Source: Promethearchaeota archaeon (GTDB lineage Archaea; Asgardarchaeota; Lokiarchaeia; Sigyniarchaeales; SOKP01). From it: a stretch of 40,597 nucleotides of DNA. The stretch's first letter is position 1. Each line of letters opens with the position of its first letter. Location: the NCBI GenBank assembly GCA_048940925.1, contig JBHLOC010000039.1:1-40597 (forward strand). Direction: 5' to 3'. Shown here in pieces: positions 278 through 37,198 of the stretch. The position numbers and the translations under genes are program-made. Below the pieces are notes generated by a model, which was not told where the DNA came from, ran no database searches, and was given only the letters and a program-made list of their open reading frames with translations.

Positions 278-1642
<1,365 letters not shown>

Positions 1643-3244: not shown

Positions 3245-4654
3245 TTACTTCTTTGAGCTAATAAACCTCTCTATTATAAGAACGATAATAATAATAAAGG
3301 CTAATGGAGGAAAAATTAATAAAAATAATCGAAACACCAAGGATTCTGCGATGTGATTAGCAAACACAAAAGTTAAACCATCAATAAATGTACTGATTAA
3401 AGAAAGACATGTAAATATAAATAAAATATCATTTATCTTGCTATCACTTAATTCTTGTAGTCTCTCTTTACCTCGTTCATGTAAATATTGAAAAACATCT
3501 AATTTATCAGTAAAAAATTCTTCCATTTGAGAGTTTCTCCAACTTAAAACTGCTTCATTATAAATGAAGTGGGCAAATGGAGCAAGATTTTGGAGGTAAT
3601 TTTGCTTACTTAAAGAATATAATTCCATTTCCATCCTTAATTTATTTATCCATCTAACTGTTCTTCTAACACGTCGTTTTTGTAAAGTCTGATATGAAGC
3701 TAATTGATTTACACGTTTATACAAAATATTATTGAATACTTGAAGAGTTCGCCATTCAATTTCCAAATATCTTAAAACTTCTTTCGCATAATTTAATTCT
3801 ACCTGATTTAAACCCGCCCATAAACTATTACCCCAACCAATATGGACAAAACCTTCTGTATCTTTAGCAAAGTTAATTGAACCCTCAGGATGACTGACTT
3901 CTATAACTTCATTCATAATTTTGTTTATTGGAATTACTTCATCTTTATTTATTTTATTTCTAACAAGCACTATATGCCCCCATAATGGAATACTAGATTT
4001 TTGAATACCAAATAAATCTTTATATGTCATTAGAGGTTTCTTTATTTCAAATTCTTCTAGTATCTCAATATAAGTTTCAAAAACATCAGTTCCAATTGAC
4101 TCTGTTCTTCTTAATAAATCCGAATTTCTCACTATTTTATCTAGTAAATCCGCCATGATTTTCCTAGGTTTAATTTGTTCAAAAGTCATAAAATCTTGTT
4201 TAAATTTTATATCAAGTTTACAGTAAATCATTCCAATTCCATATTCATGAAAACTCATGGTTTCTAAGTGAAGAGTAGGAGGGGAGTTAAAAATATCAAT
4301 TCCTATAATATCTAATGGTAACTCAATTCTTTGATTGATCTGAACCGTTATAATACTTTTGTCTCTCTGAGTAACACCACTACCTCCTGTTCCTTTAAAT
4401 AGCAAATCGTCCAGAGATCTTTGAATCATAACATCACCCCCTGTTATCCAATTCCTTATGCTTTCGATTGGATTATCACCATTTGCAAATTTTTCAATTA
4501 AAATTTGATTAGGATATTTCTTTTGTAATTTTGAACATAAAAGCTTTCTGAAATTATCATACTTTCCAATAAGAGATGAATAATCTAAAATCATGTTCGC
4601 ATTGAAAGGAGCGATAACATAAAATGTAAATTTTGGTATGGGTAAATTTTCCAT
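3245..4654 (-). CDS. Hypothetical protein with two C-terminal transmembrane helices (CorA-like architecture possible)
   Basis: 469-aa ORF; large soluble domain, long helical region, then two hydrophobic segments; no GMN motif seen. Confidence 0.6.
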   Translation of the reverse strand: MENLPIPKFTFYVIAPFNANMILDYSSLIGKYDNFRKLLCSKLQKKYPNQILIEKFANGDNPIESIRNWITGGDVMIQRSLDDLLFKGTGGSGVTQRDKSIITVQINQRIELPLDIIGIDIFNSPPTLHLETMSFHEYGIGMIYCKLDIKFKQDFMTFEQIKPRKIMADLLDKIVRNSDLLRRTESIGTDVFETYIEILEEFEIKKPLMTYKDLFGIQKSSIPLWGHIVLVRNKINKDEVIPINKIMNEVIEVSHPEGSINFAKDTEGFVHIGWGNSLWAGLNQVELNYAKEVLRYLEIEWRTLQVFNNILYKRVNQLASYQTLQKRRVRRTVRWINKLRMEMELYSLSKQNYLQNLAPFAHFIYNEAVLSWRNSQMEEFFTDKLDVFQYLHERGKERLQELSDSKINDILFIFTCLSLISTFIDGLTFVFANHIAESLVFRLFLLIFPPLAFIIIIVLIIERFISSKK

Positions 4655-32207: not shown

Positions 32208-32515
32208 TTTTAATCATCTCTTTCAAATATATTACTTCCATTATATATTTTCATAAATCATCGATATATGATACAATAAATAATTTGAGGTTAAAAATAA
32301 AATTTTTCATTTAGATCATTTCTTTTATTGGATTTAAGATTTTTAAAAGATCAACTATATTGATTATAAAATAATTTTGACAAGGTTTTCAATAGCGAGA
32401 AAGATGTAAAAGCAATAGATTTTCAAAGAATTTTTAAACTTAACAGATCGTTATTTTAGTAATTTTGGATCATCAGATTGCCATTGTAAATCCCATTTGT
32501 TTTATTTTGAAGATT

Positions 32516-33013
32516 TTAAGGAATTAAAACTATTATTCCAATAATTAAAGCAATTATTATTATTATTTCTACAATAACTGCTTTCTTTTCATAGATCCAA
32601 TCAGGAAGCCAAAAAAGCGTTTTTTCTCTAATTATATCTACCATTCTATGGAAAAAGTTGTTATGATGGTAATCTATTTTTCCATTTTTATTTCTTCTCT
32701 TTTGAATTCGTCTTACTATCATCCAATCCCAAATATCAGGTAAATTAGCAAATAACATACCTAAATAATAAGGGAAAAAAAGAATTATAGCAATATAACC
32801 AGAAACGCGTACACTAATATTCCAAGAAACCCAGAACTTATCATCCCAATGCGGTTCAGGAGTATGATATGTTATTTTTGAAAATGCATCAGTAATAAAA
32901 TGGGACAAAAAGGCAACGATTATAGTAAGTAAAAAGTTAAAGGGAAAGGTAAAGAATATAAAACATGAAATTTGAATGAGCACTCCCATCAAAACATGAG
33001 TAATTAAATTCAT
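32516..33013 (-). CDS. Small membrane protein, possible metal-dependent hydrolase
   Basis: TH...SHFITD...H...PD..D...H pattern within hydrophobic helices. Confidence 0.6.
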   Translation of the reverse strand: MNLITHVLMGVLIQISCFIFFTFPFNFLLTIIVAFLSHFITDAFSKITYHTPEPHWDDKFWVSWNISVRVSGYIAIILFFPYYLGMLFANLPDIWDWMIVRRIQKRRNKNGKIDYHHNNFFHRMVDIIREKTLFWLPDWIYEKKAVIVEIIIIIALIIGIIVLIP

Positions 33014-33388
33014 TATCTTTTTAGTTAAAATACATATAAAAGTTTATAAAAATGATATTTAAAAAAATCTTTACGTTTAGAAATAATTTTTTATTAGTAC
33101 ATCTGTGAACATGGTATTTGATGTGATTTTTGTCTATTGAATAAATTTTTCTGATTATTCAATAAATTTTTGTTACTATTATGTATGTACACTATAAAAT
33201 AAACACTTTTTCTTCATTATAATGGAAAGGATTATCATATTAGGTAAACTTGAAGTATACTGAACACTCCAAATTGACTCATCCGAATTAACATATTTTA
33301 TTTGAGCAATAACTGAAATTAATAAAAAACGATGCGTATTCTTATAATTTTTTTATTCATTTCTTATTATTAGAATTATTATTTAGTC

Positions 33389-34657
33389 TTATATTTCTGT
33401 AAAAAAATAAGTTATTCCTTCCTTTTTTGTACCTTTAATTGTTCCGTTAAAAATTAATCTAGCTAAGATATTCTCAATATTTCTTCTACAATAATCTCTT
33501 GCTTCAGAGTCTTCGATAATATCTTCTAGTCTATTTAATAGGGCCTGAATAGTAAAAGCTCTCCCTTTATTGGAATTAAAGTAATTGGCAAGTTTTTCAT
33601 CAACTTTATTGCTATATTTTTCAGTTTCATTCAATTGTTTTTCAAGAATTGTAGATTTAACATTTTTTAACTCTTTATAAAGATTATATTTTTCTGGAGT
33701 CTTTACATTACTGCTCAATCCTGCCTCCGCATTTTTTAGTCCATTTGTAAGATCATTTTGTTGCTCAAAAATTCTGGCTTTTTCTAAACATTCTTGAGAA
33801 TATTTATACCTTAAATTAATTATTAAATGATGAAATGCACTATATCGTCTAGCATATGTTTCTTCAGTCTCGAATCGCGGGTCACGAATTAATTTACAGT
33901 CAAAAGCAGGAGCTATTGTCATCTTCCCTCTTAAAGAAAAATCAGCATTGCTCCAAGATTCATAATAATAGCCTTTATATGGTTTATTCAAAGCAAATCC
34001 CTTATGAGTCATTAAAACATCAGTAGTTTGCATAAATTTTTCATATACTAGCTTAGTTCCAATGCGAGTAGTTTTCTTTCTAGGCCCCCTCCATGTTATT
34101 TTCATTATAGTACTATAAATAATATCATCTTCAGGAGGAATCACCATTAACAAGGGACTGCGTGTTACAGGTTTATAATAATATTTTCCAAACTTTAGTG
34201 CATTTTCTAAAACTAATTTAACTCGATGAATTATTTTATTACTTGGATCATAGATAAGAGCTTTCTTAGCACACTCTAATGCTTCTTTATAATTTTTACG
34301 ATATTCATAAACAAAAGCCAATTGGAGCCAGACTTCATTAACTCCTATTGTTAATGCTTCTTGACAATTCTTAATTGCTTCTTCATAATCACCATCTTCA
34401 ATTAATATATTGATTTTAATCTTCCATGGTTCTGGTATTGAAGGATTTAATTCTAAAGCTCTCTCAGCACTCTTTTTGGCAAAATCATACTTTCTCATAA
34501 AATAATATGACATACCTTTATAAATCCAAGCTAAATCAAAATCAGGATCCTTTTTAATTACTTTATCAAATTTCCTTATAGCACTTTTATATTTCTTCTG
34601 TAAATATAATTGGTATCCCTCTTTATATGTATTGTCTTCTGGCATATAGTTACACAT
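33389..34657 (-). CDS. TPR-repeat protein
   Basis: N-terminal TPRs (AWIYKG...AKKSAERALELNP; YKEALECAKKALIYDP); possible C-terminal winged helix. Confidence 0.85.
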   Translation of the reverse strand: MCNYMPEDNTYKEGYQLYLQKKYKSAIRKFDKVIKKDPDFDLAWIYKGMSYYFMRKYDFAKKSAERALELNPSIPEPWKIKINILIEDGDYEEAIKNCQEALTIGVNEVWLQLAFVYEYRKNYKEALECAKKALIYDPSNKIIHRVKLVLENALKFGKYYYKPVTRSPLLMVIPPEDDIIYSTIMKITWRGPRKKTTRIGTKLVYEKFMQTTDVLMTHKGFALNKPYKGYYYESWSNADFSLRGKMTIAPAFDCKLIRDPRFETEETYARRYSAFHHLIINLRYKYSQECLEKARIFEQQNDLTNGLKNAEAGLSSNVKTPEKYNLYKELKNVKSTILEKQLNETEKYSNKVDEKLANYFNSNKGRAFTIQALLNRLEDIIEDSEARDYCRRNIENILARLIFNGTIKGTKKEGITYFFTEI

Positions 34658-35046
34658 ATATTTATTTATATAAAATTATTAACGTTTTTACAAGAATTAT
34701 TTTATTTTCTTCAATATAATAACTAATTTTCTAAATAAGATTTTGAAAACTTAATACTTTTTATAAAGGATTTTATATATACTGATAAAATCAGTATTTT
34801 ATTACAAAGTATGCTTTTTTTTTCTGAGTTTTTATAGTATTTATTCTTTATCATTATATTTCTCATAAGTTTTAGCTTAAGGAGGGAAACTAATCGATTG
34901 GAAGAAAATGAAGAAAATGTTTAACTTTAAAAAAAGGAAGAAAAAGATTTTTATAAAAAAACATTGAAGAACTCAAGAATGAAATAATTATCGCCAAATA
35001 TAAAGAATCAAAATACAAAAAAGATAAATAACAAGGTGATAATCTA

Positions 35047-36531
35047 ATGGGAGAATACGGAGAGGGTGAATTCAATGAGAAAATTAAGGAAATTGAAACT
35101 AAACTCAATCAAATATCTCGTAATGAAAATAGTGGACGAATAAACGATTTTGGACCACTTGAAGAAATAGAGGATTTACATGAAGAAGTTGAATCTGGGT
35201 TTGAACCAAGAGATGAATCAAAATCCATTGAGTTTGAAAATTATTATGAACCATTAAATGAATCTGAAAAAAAAAAACCTTCAAAAGAAGAATATCCTAC
35301 AATGGATTTCATTGAAGATATAAGGGATGAAATCTCAAAATTAGTTCCCTCTCATGAATTACATGGTGGAAGAATCTCATACGACAAGCTTTCTGAATAC
35401 TTAGATATGCATACTCGCTATATTAGAGACACACGTAATAGAATAGTAAATTCGAATAATAAAAAATATAATCCAGATTTTAAATTTTCAAATGAACAAT
35501 TAAATAATTTTATATCTTCTTTCTCTAAAAAATTTAGCAATGTAGATATTAGCAGTATTGAAAAGTTAGTAAACAAATATGTCAATAGTAATGATCTTAT
35601 TGAATATAGACAACAACAATGGCATCTTCACAATCCTGATCTAAAATATGATTATTTCAAATCTCTTGACTCAACAAGTAAGGGATATTATTTTGGATTA
35701 TTACTTGCTGAGGGAACTATTTCTTCTAAAGGAAATCTAGGAATATTTTTAGAAAAAGAAGATATTAATGTAATGAAAAGATATAGAAAAGAACTTAATA
35801 TTGTAAATAAACTTGAATATGTAACAGATAAAAGAAAGAAAAAGCAATCAGGAGAGTATCCAGAACGATATGGTGTAAGAGTAGGATGTAAACCTATGAT
35901 AAACGATTTAAAAAACTTAGGATTTTTAAATTTCAAAGAACGAAATGCCTTAAAAGAAGGATTTTTTACAAACATGAGGGAAGATGTTGCTTTATCTATT
36001 TTACTTGGTTTTTATGATGGAGATGGTGAAGAAAGTGCTCCTATTATTCATTCTACTAATAAAAAATTTCTCAAACAAATTAAGAGAGAATTCAATATTA
36101 AACATGAAATAAAACTAAAGCGTAAAGCTGAAAGAACTAAAGTCTGGACTAAAGAATGTGATATAAAAGATCAATGGTATTTAAGAATTGGTCCAGAATT
36201 ATTTAATCGAATGATGGAATCGTATGACTATAGTATGGAAAGAAAAAGAGCGTATTATCCAATGAAGGGAGGTAAATATGCATATGATGCTCTTTCTAAG
36301 AAAATAGGTAATAGGGAATGTCTAAATGAATTATCTCTTATTGGTCCTAGAACTAAATTAGCTGACGCTTTTGGTTGTAGTTTCGAACTTTTTAAACGAC
36401 TATGCGATGAATATAATATTAAGACTTTACCTCATTCCTACTGGAAGAGAGCTGATAAAAAAGACTGGAAACTAAACTTCGATAAAAAAATTGAAGATTT
36501 CAAAAATAAATATTTGGTAAATAATCCATAA
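35047..36531 (+). CDS. Free-standing double-motif LAGLIDADG homing endonuclease-like protein
   Basis: GYYFGLLLAEGTI and SILLGFYDGDGE motifs; AGGTGA SD; no intein termini seen; acidic N-terminus. Confidence 0.82.
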   Translation: MGEYGEGEFNEKIKEIETKLNQISRNENSGRINDFGPLEEIEDLHEEVESGFEPRDESKSIEFENYYEPLNESEKKKPSKEEYPTMDFIEDIRDEISKLVPSHELHGGRISYDKLSEYLDMHTRYIRDTRNRIVNSNNKKYNPDFKFSNEQLNNFISSFSKKFSNVDISSIEKLVNKYVNSNDLIEYRQQQWHLHNPDLKYDYFKSLDSTSKGYYFGLLLAEGTISSKGNLGIFLEKEDINVMKRYRKELNIVNKLEYVTDKRKKKQSGEYPERYGVRVGCKPMINDLKNLGFLNFKERNALKEGFFTNMREDVALSILLGFYDGDGEESAPIIHSTNKKFLKQIKREFNIKHEIKLKRKAERTKVWTKECDIKDQWYLRIGPELFNRMMESYDYSMERKRAYYPMKGGKYAYDALSKKIGNRECLNELSLIGPRTKLADAFGCSFELFKRLCDEYNIKTLPHSYWKRADKKDWKLNFDKKIEDFKNKYLVNNP

Positions 36532-36641
36532 ATAAATTAGAAAAATTTTTTTTATATTGTTAATTTATCAAATTAAAGTTGTGATTTTATTTTAAATGTT
36601 AATTAGAATTACCAAATTTGGAATTATAGAGGTGATTTACC

Positions 36642-36873
36642 ATCATTATCCCAATCCGCTGCTTTAGTTGCGGTAAGCTCATAGCACATGTATATGAACC
36701 ATATTTAGAGTATTTAGAAAAAGGAGAGAGCTCAGAAAAAGCGTTTAAGGAGCTTGGTATTGAACGCTTTTGTTGTAAACGCATGATCGTAAATTAGTAG
36801 GCATTTTCGCCTTATAAGTGTAAGTCATGTGGATCTGATAGATGAGCTCCTCAAATTTCCGAGATTACAATAG
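36642..36873 (+). CDS. rpoN: DNA-directed RNA polymerase subunit N (Rpo10); split gene join(36642..36792,36824..36873), ATC start, 66 aa
   Basis: (M)IIPIRCFSCGK...LGIERFCCKRMIV + SHVDLIDELLKFPRLQ*; GAGGTGA SD 6 nt upstream; missed by ORF track. Confidence 0.92.
36793..36823 (+). other. Candidate 31-nt bulge-helix-bulge intron in rpoN mRNA
   Basis: 7-bp exon helix, two 3-nt bulges, 4-position central helix (3 of 4 paired), intron hairpin; removal restores frame. Confidence 0.75.
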
Positions 36874-36934
36874 TCTAAATTAATTATATAGTAATCTAAG
36901 TGAAATACAAGAGTAAAATTATGTGGATTTTCTT

Positions 36935-36976
36935 GACCTGATCGATGAATTACTTAAATTTCCTCGATTACAATGA
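36935..36976 (+). repeat. Second, synonymously recoded copy of the rpoN 3' end (DLIDELLKFPRLQ*)
   Basis: Same 13 aa as 36832-36873, with 8 silent nucleotide changes and TGA instead of TAG. Confidence 0.9.
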
Positions 36977-37015
36977 TTAAATCTTTTCTTTAATATTTAA
37001 AAGAATAAGTAAAAA

Positions 37016-37198
37016 TTATTCTTTCCCGTAATAAGCAGTCCATCTGGTTTTTCTTGCTTTTTTTTTATAAACCAGCATTGCTTTTCTACATTTGTTGGTA
37101 CAAAAATTATGTATTATACCGTTCTTTTGGATAAACATTATTCCTCTGCCTATAGGAATATCATACCCACAGAAAGAGCATTTCTTTACTTTGACCAT
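37016..37198 (-). CDS. rpl24e: 50S ribosomal protein L24e
   Basis: CSFCG..I..GRG.M...FCTNKC...RWT. Confidence 0.96.
   Translation of the reverse strand: MVKVKKCSFCGYDIPIGRGIMFIQKNGIIHNFCTNKCRKAMLVYKKKARKTRWTAYYGKE

Follow-up and report, generated by a model that had tools for sequence, protein, structure and literature searches.

A second, silently recoded rpoN tail in an Asgard archaeon as the probable native 3' end displaced by an endonuclease-associated cassette

The rpoN locus, its insert and its two tails

The window, by which we mean the whole 40,597-nt stretch of DNA that was analysed (contig JBHLOC010000039.1 of a Promethearchaeota archaeon), carries on its forward strand the gene rpoN (Rpo10), and this locus gave the single rpoN match in the whole genome. 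Exon 1, identified by its translation, occupies 36642..36792 with an ATC start behind GAGGTGA. It is preceded, 110 nt upstream, by an intact free-standing LAGLIDADG homing-endonuclease gene of 494 aa on the same strand (35047..36531; Pfam). Around the start (36629-36644) rpoN is without ATG, GTG or TTG; the ATC, 6 nt past GAGGTGA, aligns with the initiator of MIIP in relatives, where the first codon reads M, I, V or L depending on the species. Exon 1 closes with ...CCKRMIV at 36792 and runs into stop codons, and the conserved tail SHVDLIDELLKFPRLQ with its stop picks up 31 nt later in another frame, ending in TAG at 36871-36873. This tail, referred to here as copy 1, makes up the second exon (36824..36873, forward strand), which we regard as a cassette-borne replacement end for the reasons given below.

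Excision of the 31 nt at 36793-36823 restores ...KRMIVSHVDLIDELLKFPRLQ with its stop (SHVDLIDELL), as in 38 uninterrupted alleles of the genus. The insert was checked for the features of a tRNA-type (BHB) intron, namely two 3-nt bulges with a 4-bp helix between them, flanking helices and frame-restoring cut sites, and all of these were found, the central helix forming 3 of its 4 pairs. When the helix-bulge-helix-bulge-helix geometry was applied to ten insert-bearing alleles, 89.5% of the cells were paired, as compared to 32-51% with slid partners as control on the same ten alleles, and five pairs had changed on both sides. The genome encodes two EndA-family genes and one RtcB. We take the insert (36793..36823, forward strand) for a BHB-type mini-intron, predicted to be spliced, at the left edge of the foreign segment.

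The initial annotation had reported that DLIDELLKFPRLQ with its stop is encoded twice, 103 nt apart from start to start, and both copies were indeed found where it placed them. Copy 1 reads GAT CTG ATA GAT GAG CTC CTC AAA TTT CCG AGA TTA CAA TAG (36832-36873) and copy 2 reads GAC CTG ATC GAT GAA TTA CTT AAA TTT CCT CGA TTA CAA TGA (36935-36976). As had been noted, the copies show 8 differences in 7 codons (32/40 identities), all of them synonymous, and end in different stops, TAG and TGA, respectively. The noted echo of the acceptor is present as well, GTAAAATTATGTGGAT (36914-36929) resembling the acceptor GTAAGTCATGTGGAT (36820-36834). It lies in the spacer between the copies (36874..36932, forward strand), a remnant of the inserted segment which is without counterpart in G067, the nearest relative of the window genome, whose rpoN is intronless. 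The stretch 36914-36929 is a decayed fragment of a cassette-type acceptor and tail start (GTAA..ATGTGGAT); the spacer is alignable in part with that of the insert-bearing genome G018, with a 20-nt indel, and a comparable 14-nt fragment, GCGTAAGTCATGTG, stands ahead of copy 2 in G047.

Copy 2, (V)DLIDELLKFPRLQ with stop TGA, occupies 36933..36976 on the forward strand, as delimited by colinearity with G067 and by nhmmer, and was matched by a profile of intronless rpoN tails with E = 4e-10. Because of this match, and since second tails are confined to insert-bearing alleles, its resemblance to an rpoN tail is not a matter of chance. It is followed by a native intergenic spacer and by the convergent ORF of rpl24e (37016-37198), the usual right neighbour of rpoN, which together occupy 36977..37198 on the minus strand; in intronless relatives rpl24e comes after the single tail, and in G018, G016, G047, G052 and G024 it comes after copy 2. 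An in-frame 9-nt insertion in copy 2 (HVD-FLD-LID) was considered and ruled out by the alignment with G067, in which the native V-D is GTT GAC. The extra in-frame 'FLD' ahead of copy 2 in the initial annotation therefore has to be given up: native sequence resumes at TTGAC (36933) and the ATGTGGAT upstream of it belongs to the inserted segment. Copy 2 is not translated as part of rpoN, and for annotation purposes the second tail should be called neither gene nor exon.

rpoN alleles in the genus and the origin of the two copies

We gathered rpoN loci from 48 of 54 genomes of the same Promethearchaeota (Asgard) genus. In 38 of the 48 the allele is uninterrupted and has one tail, ...KRM[IV][IVT][SG]HVDLID[ED]LLKF[PS]RLQ followed by the stop, and in the other ten an insert stands at the identical place (G000, which is the window genome, G018, G016, G047, G008, G052, G001, G024, G055 and G059). 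The insert measures 31 nt, or 30 nt in G047. Using a DNA profile of the uninterrupted tails, a second tail was found in 7 of the 10 insert-bearing alleles as against none of the 38 uninterrupted ones. Two layouts occur. In G000, G018, G016 and G047 the tails start 55-150 nt apart, with a short spacer only, and in G008, G052 and G024 exon 1 and the intron are followed by copy 1, then by an endonuclease gene on the minus strand and then by copy 2. rpl24e comes right after copy 2 in G052 and G024, and two further ORFs intervene in G008. These two ORFs (locus L031, +1923..+4045; 512 aa on the plus strand and 199 aa on the minus strand) are absent from relatives and make up a further insertion at this site, between copy 2 and rpl24e.

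The tail profile search did not find copy 2 in the remaining three insert-bearing alleles, G001, G055 and G059, and in G001 it has been deleted. The alleles of G055 (L049) and G059 (L053) carry the insert without a second tail and without a nuclease gene nearby, and their downstream gene order is rearranged; the Arg codon of their tails is the native-like CGA, as against AGA in the cassette, and copy 1 and copy 2 may have recombined to give these alleles.

The survey bears on the possibility of an assembly artefact, in which two strains with different rpoN tails were joined in one contig. The window does come from a metagenome-assembled draft of 90 contigs with an estimated contamination of 8.4%, but the two-tail layout was found in seven genomes, each assembled on its own and from different species, whose sequences have diverged and whose spacers vary in length, and the G024 contig is 1.05 Mb long. 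We therefore consider an artefact extremely improbable.

To determine which copy is native, we chose for each two-tail genome the nearest relative by rpl24e plus rps6e identity, which was intronless in nearly every case, and compared the last 36 nt of the tails; the consensus of the ten insert-bearing alleles served as the cassette tail. Across the seven genomes copy 2 matched the tail of the nearest relative at 29-35 of 36 positions and copy 1 at 26-31; in the window the values were 35/36, against G067, and 28/36. Copy 2 was closer than copy 1 to the tail of the relative in six of the seven genomes, with a tie in G052. The comparison with the insert-bearing consensus gave 31-34 of 36 for copy 1 and 24-31 for copy 2 (34/36 and 29/36 in the window). 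The flanks behave in the same way. BLAST and alignments revealed that homology with the closest relative lacking the intron ends, in each of the seven genomes, at about +149 of rpoN and restarts at native position 154-169, i.e. at copy 2, from where it extends for kilobases. In the window, the 142 nt from 36791 to 36932 replace 8 nt of G067; homology restarts at 36933, and colinearity with G067 from there on covers 3 kb at 88.5%. The spacer after copy 2 and rpl24e also track the host relationship. Since both the tail identities and the downstream homology follow the host relationship, copy 2 is identified by sequence comparison as native and copy 1 as foreign, and the working rpoN as a chimera. 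The initial annotation had pointed to a comparison of each copy with intron-less alleles, and that comparison thus singles out copy 2, which matches the intronless G067 together with the sequence downstream of it.

The same values bear on a local tandem duplication of the rpoN tail in the lineage of the window, with both copies kept by selection and drifting silently. Two tandem copies with silent differences only are what such a duplication would give. However, copy 1 is nearer to the tails of distant insert-bearing species (34/36) than to its own copy 2 (27/36), copy 2 matches the single tail of the nearest relative at all but one position, and a duplication leaves unexplained both the endonuclease gene between the copies in relatives and the co-converted end of exon 1 described below. 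We regard it as extremely improbable.

The initial annotation had further read the purely silent divergence as a sign that both copies were under protein-level selection. This holds historically, each copy having been a working tail in its own lineage, but it does not show selection on copy 2 in its present place: the silent divergence is that of two alleles under selection in separate lineages, not of present selection on both. Amino-acid changes have accumulated in copy 2 of G047 (D>N), G024 (I>F), G008 (D>N, E>D) and G052 (I>L). The end of copy 2, LLKFPRLQ and the stop (the last 8 sense codons plus stop), shows zero amino-acid changes in the seven genomes, and is more conserved than simple neutral decay predicts; renewal at each homing event would explain this conservation. 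Between G000 and G018, 2 of 44 positions differ over copy 2, both silently, and about 16% differ in the downstream spacer. Selection on copy 2 in place was considered on these counts and set aside, as the counts are suggestive but too small and post hoc.

It had also been proposed that copy 2 serves as an alternative 3' exon, exon 1 pairing with the UUAUGUG before copy 2 and 36792 being joined to 36918 to give an isoform ending in VNYVDFLDLIDELLKFPRLQ. The elements of this proposal are present as described: CGCAUGA/UUAUGUG can pair as an outer helix, joining at that point keeps the frame, and the 14 nt that precede copy 2 in G047 (GCGUAAGUCAUGUG) match the true acceptor exactly. Copy 2 probably lies within the rpoN transcript, the first T-rich tract coming after it, and its last 8 sense codons and stop are free of amino-acid change in the seven genomes. 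But the central helix forms just 2 of its 4 pairs in the window, as had been acknowledged, and the minimum-energy fold (36770-36945) pairs exon 1 with the proximal, copy-1 acceptor. The arrangement is not conserved in G018, which shares the insertion event of G000 because it has the same right junction and a partly alignable spacer: the outer helix has 7/7 pairs in G000 and 5/7 in G018, and the linker reads NYVDFL in G000 and IYIDQL in G018, with 4 of 6 residues differing. For G008, G052 and G024 the proposal would require an 'intron' of about 1.6 kb that crosses the endonuclease gene in antisense orientation. Three of the 10 insert-bearing alleles lack copy 2, and in the four genomes named above copy 2 has amino-acid changes. 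In the isoform, other residues would take the place of the SHVD motif, invariant within the genus, and the in-frame relation follows from common descent, with no need for selection. On these grounds we regard the alternative exon as highly improbable, and we retain the reading of copy 2 as the displaced native end.

The endonuclease gene and the extent of the foreign cassette

The protein encoded upstream of rpoN matches Pfam LAGLIDADG_3 with 23.6 bits, just over the cut-off of 22.5 (E = 6.3e-5), and its translation contains LAGLIDADG motifs with acidic residues, LLLAEG and FYDGDG. LAGLIDADG_3 was the sole Pfam match, without any match to Hint or zinc-finger domains, and a PDB sequence search with the endonuclease returned nothing significant. 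Homologues with 57-66% aa identity lie between the tails in G008, G052 and G024 and beside rpoN in G001 and G012. The initial annotation had proposed to look for larger elements between the copies in relatives, and these three genomes carry one, in the form of a homing-endonuclease gene of 1.5 kb. An endonuclease gene was found within 3 kb of rpoN at 5 of 10 insert-bearing loci as compared to 1 of 38 others (hypergeometric P about 8e-4, in a sample of related genomes which are not independent). No endonuclease gene lies within 3 kb of rpoN in G018, G016 and G047. In the window it lies upstream of rpoN and not between the copies, and homology to G067 restarts exactly past its stop, at 36532. 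A search for relatives of the endonuclease across the genomes of 185,579 species returned a single locus, that of G024.

Several further loci were noted in the course of this survey. G012 (L067, G012:C75) has an uninterrupted rpoN at 279-480 with the silent codons TCT CAC GTC GAC at S-H-V-D and no second tail, and a minus-strand ORF of 912 aa (+276..+3014), the C-terminal ~410 aa of which are the nuclease homologue; this allele may be protected by recoding alone. The genome of the window encodes three distant nuclease paralogues, two of which are convergent with acetoacetyl-CoA-synthetase-like genes (L063, G000:C57, ~3470-3500, minus strand; L065, G000:C17, ~440-470, plus strand). Both synthetase-like genes contain a 30-nt insert with an in-frame TAA within the conserved motif SWMM|WNW, with ATG at both ends. 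These inserts form a hairpin with symmetric internal loops, to which no canonical BHB register could be fitted, the best fit being 28 nt; the synthetase loci may be a second pair of nuclease and mini-intron. Self-comparison of the three paralogue loci revealed no duplicated gene ends. The 4.15 kb from 32378 to 36531 of the window contain, besides the nuclease gene, a membrane ORF of 165 aa and a TPR-like ORF of 422 aa. G067 has a different stretch of 1.6 kb in place of these 4.15 kb, and the interval between rpl7ae and rpoN is variable in the genus.

The foreign segment reaches into exon 1. G000 and G018 agree at 122/122 positions over the intron and positions 60-150 of exon 1, as compared to 89% identity in their host genes, and the two share nine silent differences from G067 at exon-1 positions 101-149. 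These nine sites include AAA CGC ATG ATC GTA, i.e. the outer and central helices of the intron. At least the last ~50 nt of exon 1, from the first of the nine sites (about 36743) onwards, are of the cassette type and co-converted with it. Between G047 and G066 identity is 82.6% over the entire exon 1 and 94% in the flank. In G018 (L034) the first ~45 nt of rpoN and the upstream sequence diverge, 15-17 of the first 50 nt differing from G067 and G000, and the downstream host genes are 96% identical to those of G067; G018 thus has a second recombination boundary within exon 1.

The identity between G008 and G052 is 78% both for host genes and for exon 1, 98% for intron plus tail and about 80% for the endonuclease genes. 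A single recent transfer of the whole cassette between these two was considered and rejected, as just ~130 nt around the intron are at 93-98% and the endonuclease genes at ~80%. The cassette thus does not always move as one piece, and its pieces can move separately. On the host-gene tree the eight insert-bearing rows require eight state changes, of which at least five are forced by well-supported branches, and G018 differs from the intronless G067 by the whole insertion at 96% identity in rpl24e plus rps6e (rpl24e, 179/183). Because of these tree changes, and because G018 and G067 are so close despite the insertion difference, the segment is taken, from the sequences compared, to be mobile or highly polymorphic. 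Both a patchy distribution and discordant 5' and 3' histories of rpoN were thus found.

The repeated tails might also be viewed as attL/attR-like repeats of an integrase-mediated element, a virus or plasmid, which entered at the rpoN 3' end and has since been largely deleted. Elements that integrate at the end of a gene often bring a substitute end with them, the displaced copy staying behind. However, the stop-to-stop ORF lists of the loci contain no integrase-sized ORF between or beside the copies, and the cargo, where present, is a LAGLIDADG gene only; identical core repeats at both ends were not found. The copies are 80% identical with a longest shared run of 9 nt, unlike a recombinase core, and the left boundary falls together with the intron and with a tract of co-conversion in exon 1, which is what break repair would give. 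An element of this kind is very unlikely.

Proposed mechanism and comparison with known systems

We conclude that copy 2 is very probably the original rpoN 3' end of its lineage, displaced by an endonuclease-associated cassette which entered at codon ~51. The initial annotation had offered displacement by an incoming intron-bearing allele or element as one of its readings, and this reading is supported by the native character of copy 2 together with the endonuclease gene between the copies in relatives. The cassette would consist of the end of exon 1, the 31-nt BHB mini-intron, the recoded tail and, originally, the LAGLIDADG gene; the end of exon 1 would belong to it because the outer helix of the intron needs the exon-1 end. 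According to the mechanism we propose, the nuclease would cut uninterrupted rpoN near the intron site, at codon 51, and the break would be repaired from a cassette-bearing genome, so that the donor sequence is copied from exon 1 onwards, with the intron, replacement tail and nuclease gene. Homology would be provided on the left by exon 1 and on the right by the displaced tail together with rpl24e, repair resolving within the displaced tail or within rpl24e. The native tail would thereby be pushed downstream, outside the reading frame, and the intron and recoded tail would make the new allele resistant to cutting. We infer both the cleavage of uninterrupted rpoN and the resistance of the insert-bearing allele from the arrangement of the alleles. 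In the window, to judge from its relatives, the nuclease gene between the copies would later have been deleted, leaving a remnant of 59 nt. The acceptor fragments before copy 2 in G000 and G047 would fit imprecise or repeated events. Under this model copy 2 looks fresh in each genome because the right part would be renewed from the recipient at every event.

A more far-reaching version of this model, which in our judgement stands evenly balanced between right and wrong, is that the displaced tail is no debris but serves as the right homology arm of an archaeal homing element that is still active, that each event renews the tail from the recipient, and that the free-standing nuclease carries the mini-intron and recoded end into rpoN of new Asgard species. 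If true, this would be the first concrete and testable route by which BHB introns enter archaeal protein-coding genes. To our knowledge, introns in archaeal protein genes are very rare. The duplicated tail is physical evidence that the intron-bearing rpoN allele came as foreign DNA and did not arise in place, and it marks both the end of the foreign segment and the native half of the gene. Ten alleles with the insert and 38 without it, together with nuclease genes both intact and decayed, provide before-and-after pairs such as G018/G067, and the locus allows the mechanism of intron gain to be tested in the closest prokaryotic relatives of eukaryotes.

The closest parallel is offered by the WHO elements at the yeast aldolase gene FBA1, in which an endonuclease gene lies beside an essential conserved gene (Coughlan et al. 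2020, eLife, PMC7282813). In WHO homing a resistant version replaces the 3' end of FBA1 and the previous end is displaced downstream as a fragment, which those authors argue to be the homology arm of the next homing event; the 5' and 3' parts of FBA1 are discordant in history, and fragments and nuclease genes decay (PMC7282813). All of these sequence-level features were seen at Asgard rpoN. An endonuclease gene stands between the full gene and the 3' fragment in G008, G052 and G024; in the window a remnant of 59 nt stands between the copies and the endonuclease gene upstream; and the fragment is the former 3' end of the recipient, the working end being foreign. The differences lie in the nuclease, the host and the structure of the element. 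The rpoN nuclease is of the free-standing LAGLIDADG_3 type, with no match to Hint or zinc-finger domains, and so lacks the Hint/intein-like fold plus zinc finger of the WHO protein family; the host is an archaeon and not a yeast in meiosis; the replacement end of rpoN starts with a tRNA-type (BHB) mini-intron, which WHO elements lack; and no tandem cluster of several nuclease genes was seen at the rpoN loci. By analogy, then, the rpoN element appears to work like a WHO element while standing outside the WHO protein family.

Replacement of gene C-termini by mobile endonuclease ORFs (mORFs) is known from fungal mitochondria, namely from atp6, atp9, cox2 and nad3 of Glomus (Beaudet et al. 2013, PMC3630166) and, as cited in that paper, from atp6 of Allomyces macrogynus (Paquin, Laforest and Lang 1994). 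The order there is foreign C-terminus, endonuclease ORF and native C*-terminus; of the two termini it is the native fragment that lies much closer to the gene of the sister species, and the protein sequence is nearly unchanged (PMC3630166). The identity pattern of the native fragment is the same as that of copy 2 versus copy 1 of rpoN. In contrast to rpoN, mORFs reside in organellar genomes, the ORF is often fused in frame with the host gene and there is no intron at the junction; the target here is the chromosomal gene of an RNA polymerase subunit in an Asgard archaeon.

Collaborative, or trans, homing is reported to occur in phages, examples being F-CphI with the psbA intron of cyanophage S-PM2, and mobE and I-TevIII of T4. 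In these systems, as reported, a free-standing nuclease gene lies beside an ORF-less intron proposed to interrupt the target site, and the presence of nuclease and intron is associated across relatives, as at rpoN. The phage introns are self-splicing group I introns and are not known to come with a duplicated gene end, whereas the 31-nt BHB intron of rpoN would rely on tRNA-splicing enzymes of the host and a displaced tail is left behind.

For the intron itself, a precedent is found in the BHB intron of cbf5 pre-mRNA in Crenarchaeota, which is short and of patchy gain and loss (Yokobori et al. 2009, PMC2738675). It is likewise a short tRNA-type intron, patchily distributed, in an archaeal protein-coding gene, but it concerns another gene in another phylum, and the abstract of that paper describes no endonuclease gene, replacement end or displaced tail. 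A search of the full-text literature for Asgard archaea found neither an rpoN intron nor an element like this one described. Elements of this kind are known; what is new is its archaeal host, an essential transcription gene as its target and a BHB mini-intron at the left edge of its replacement end.
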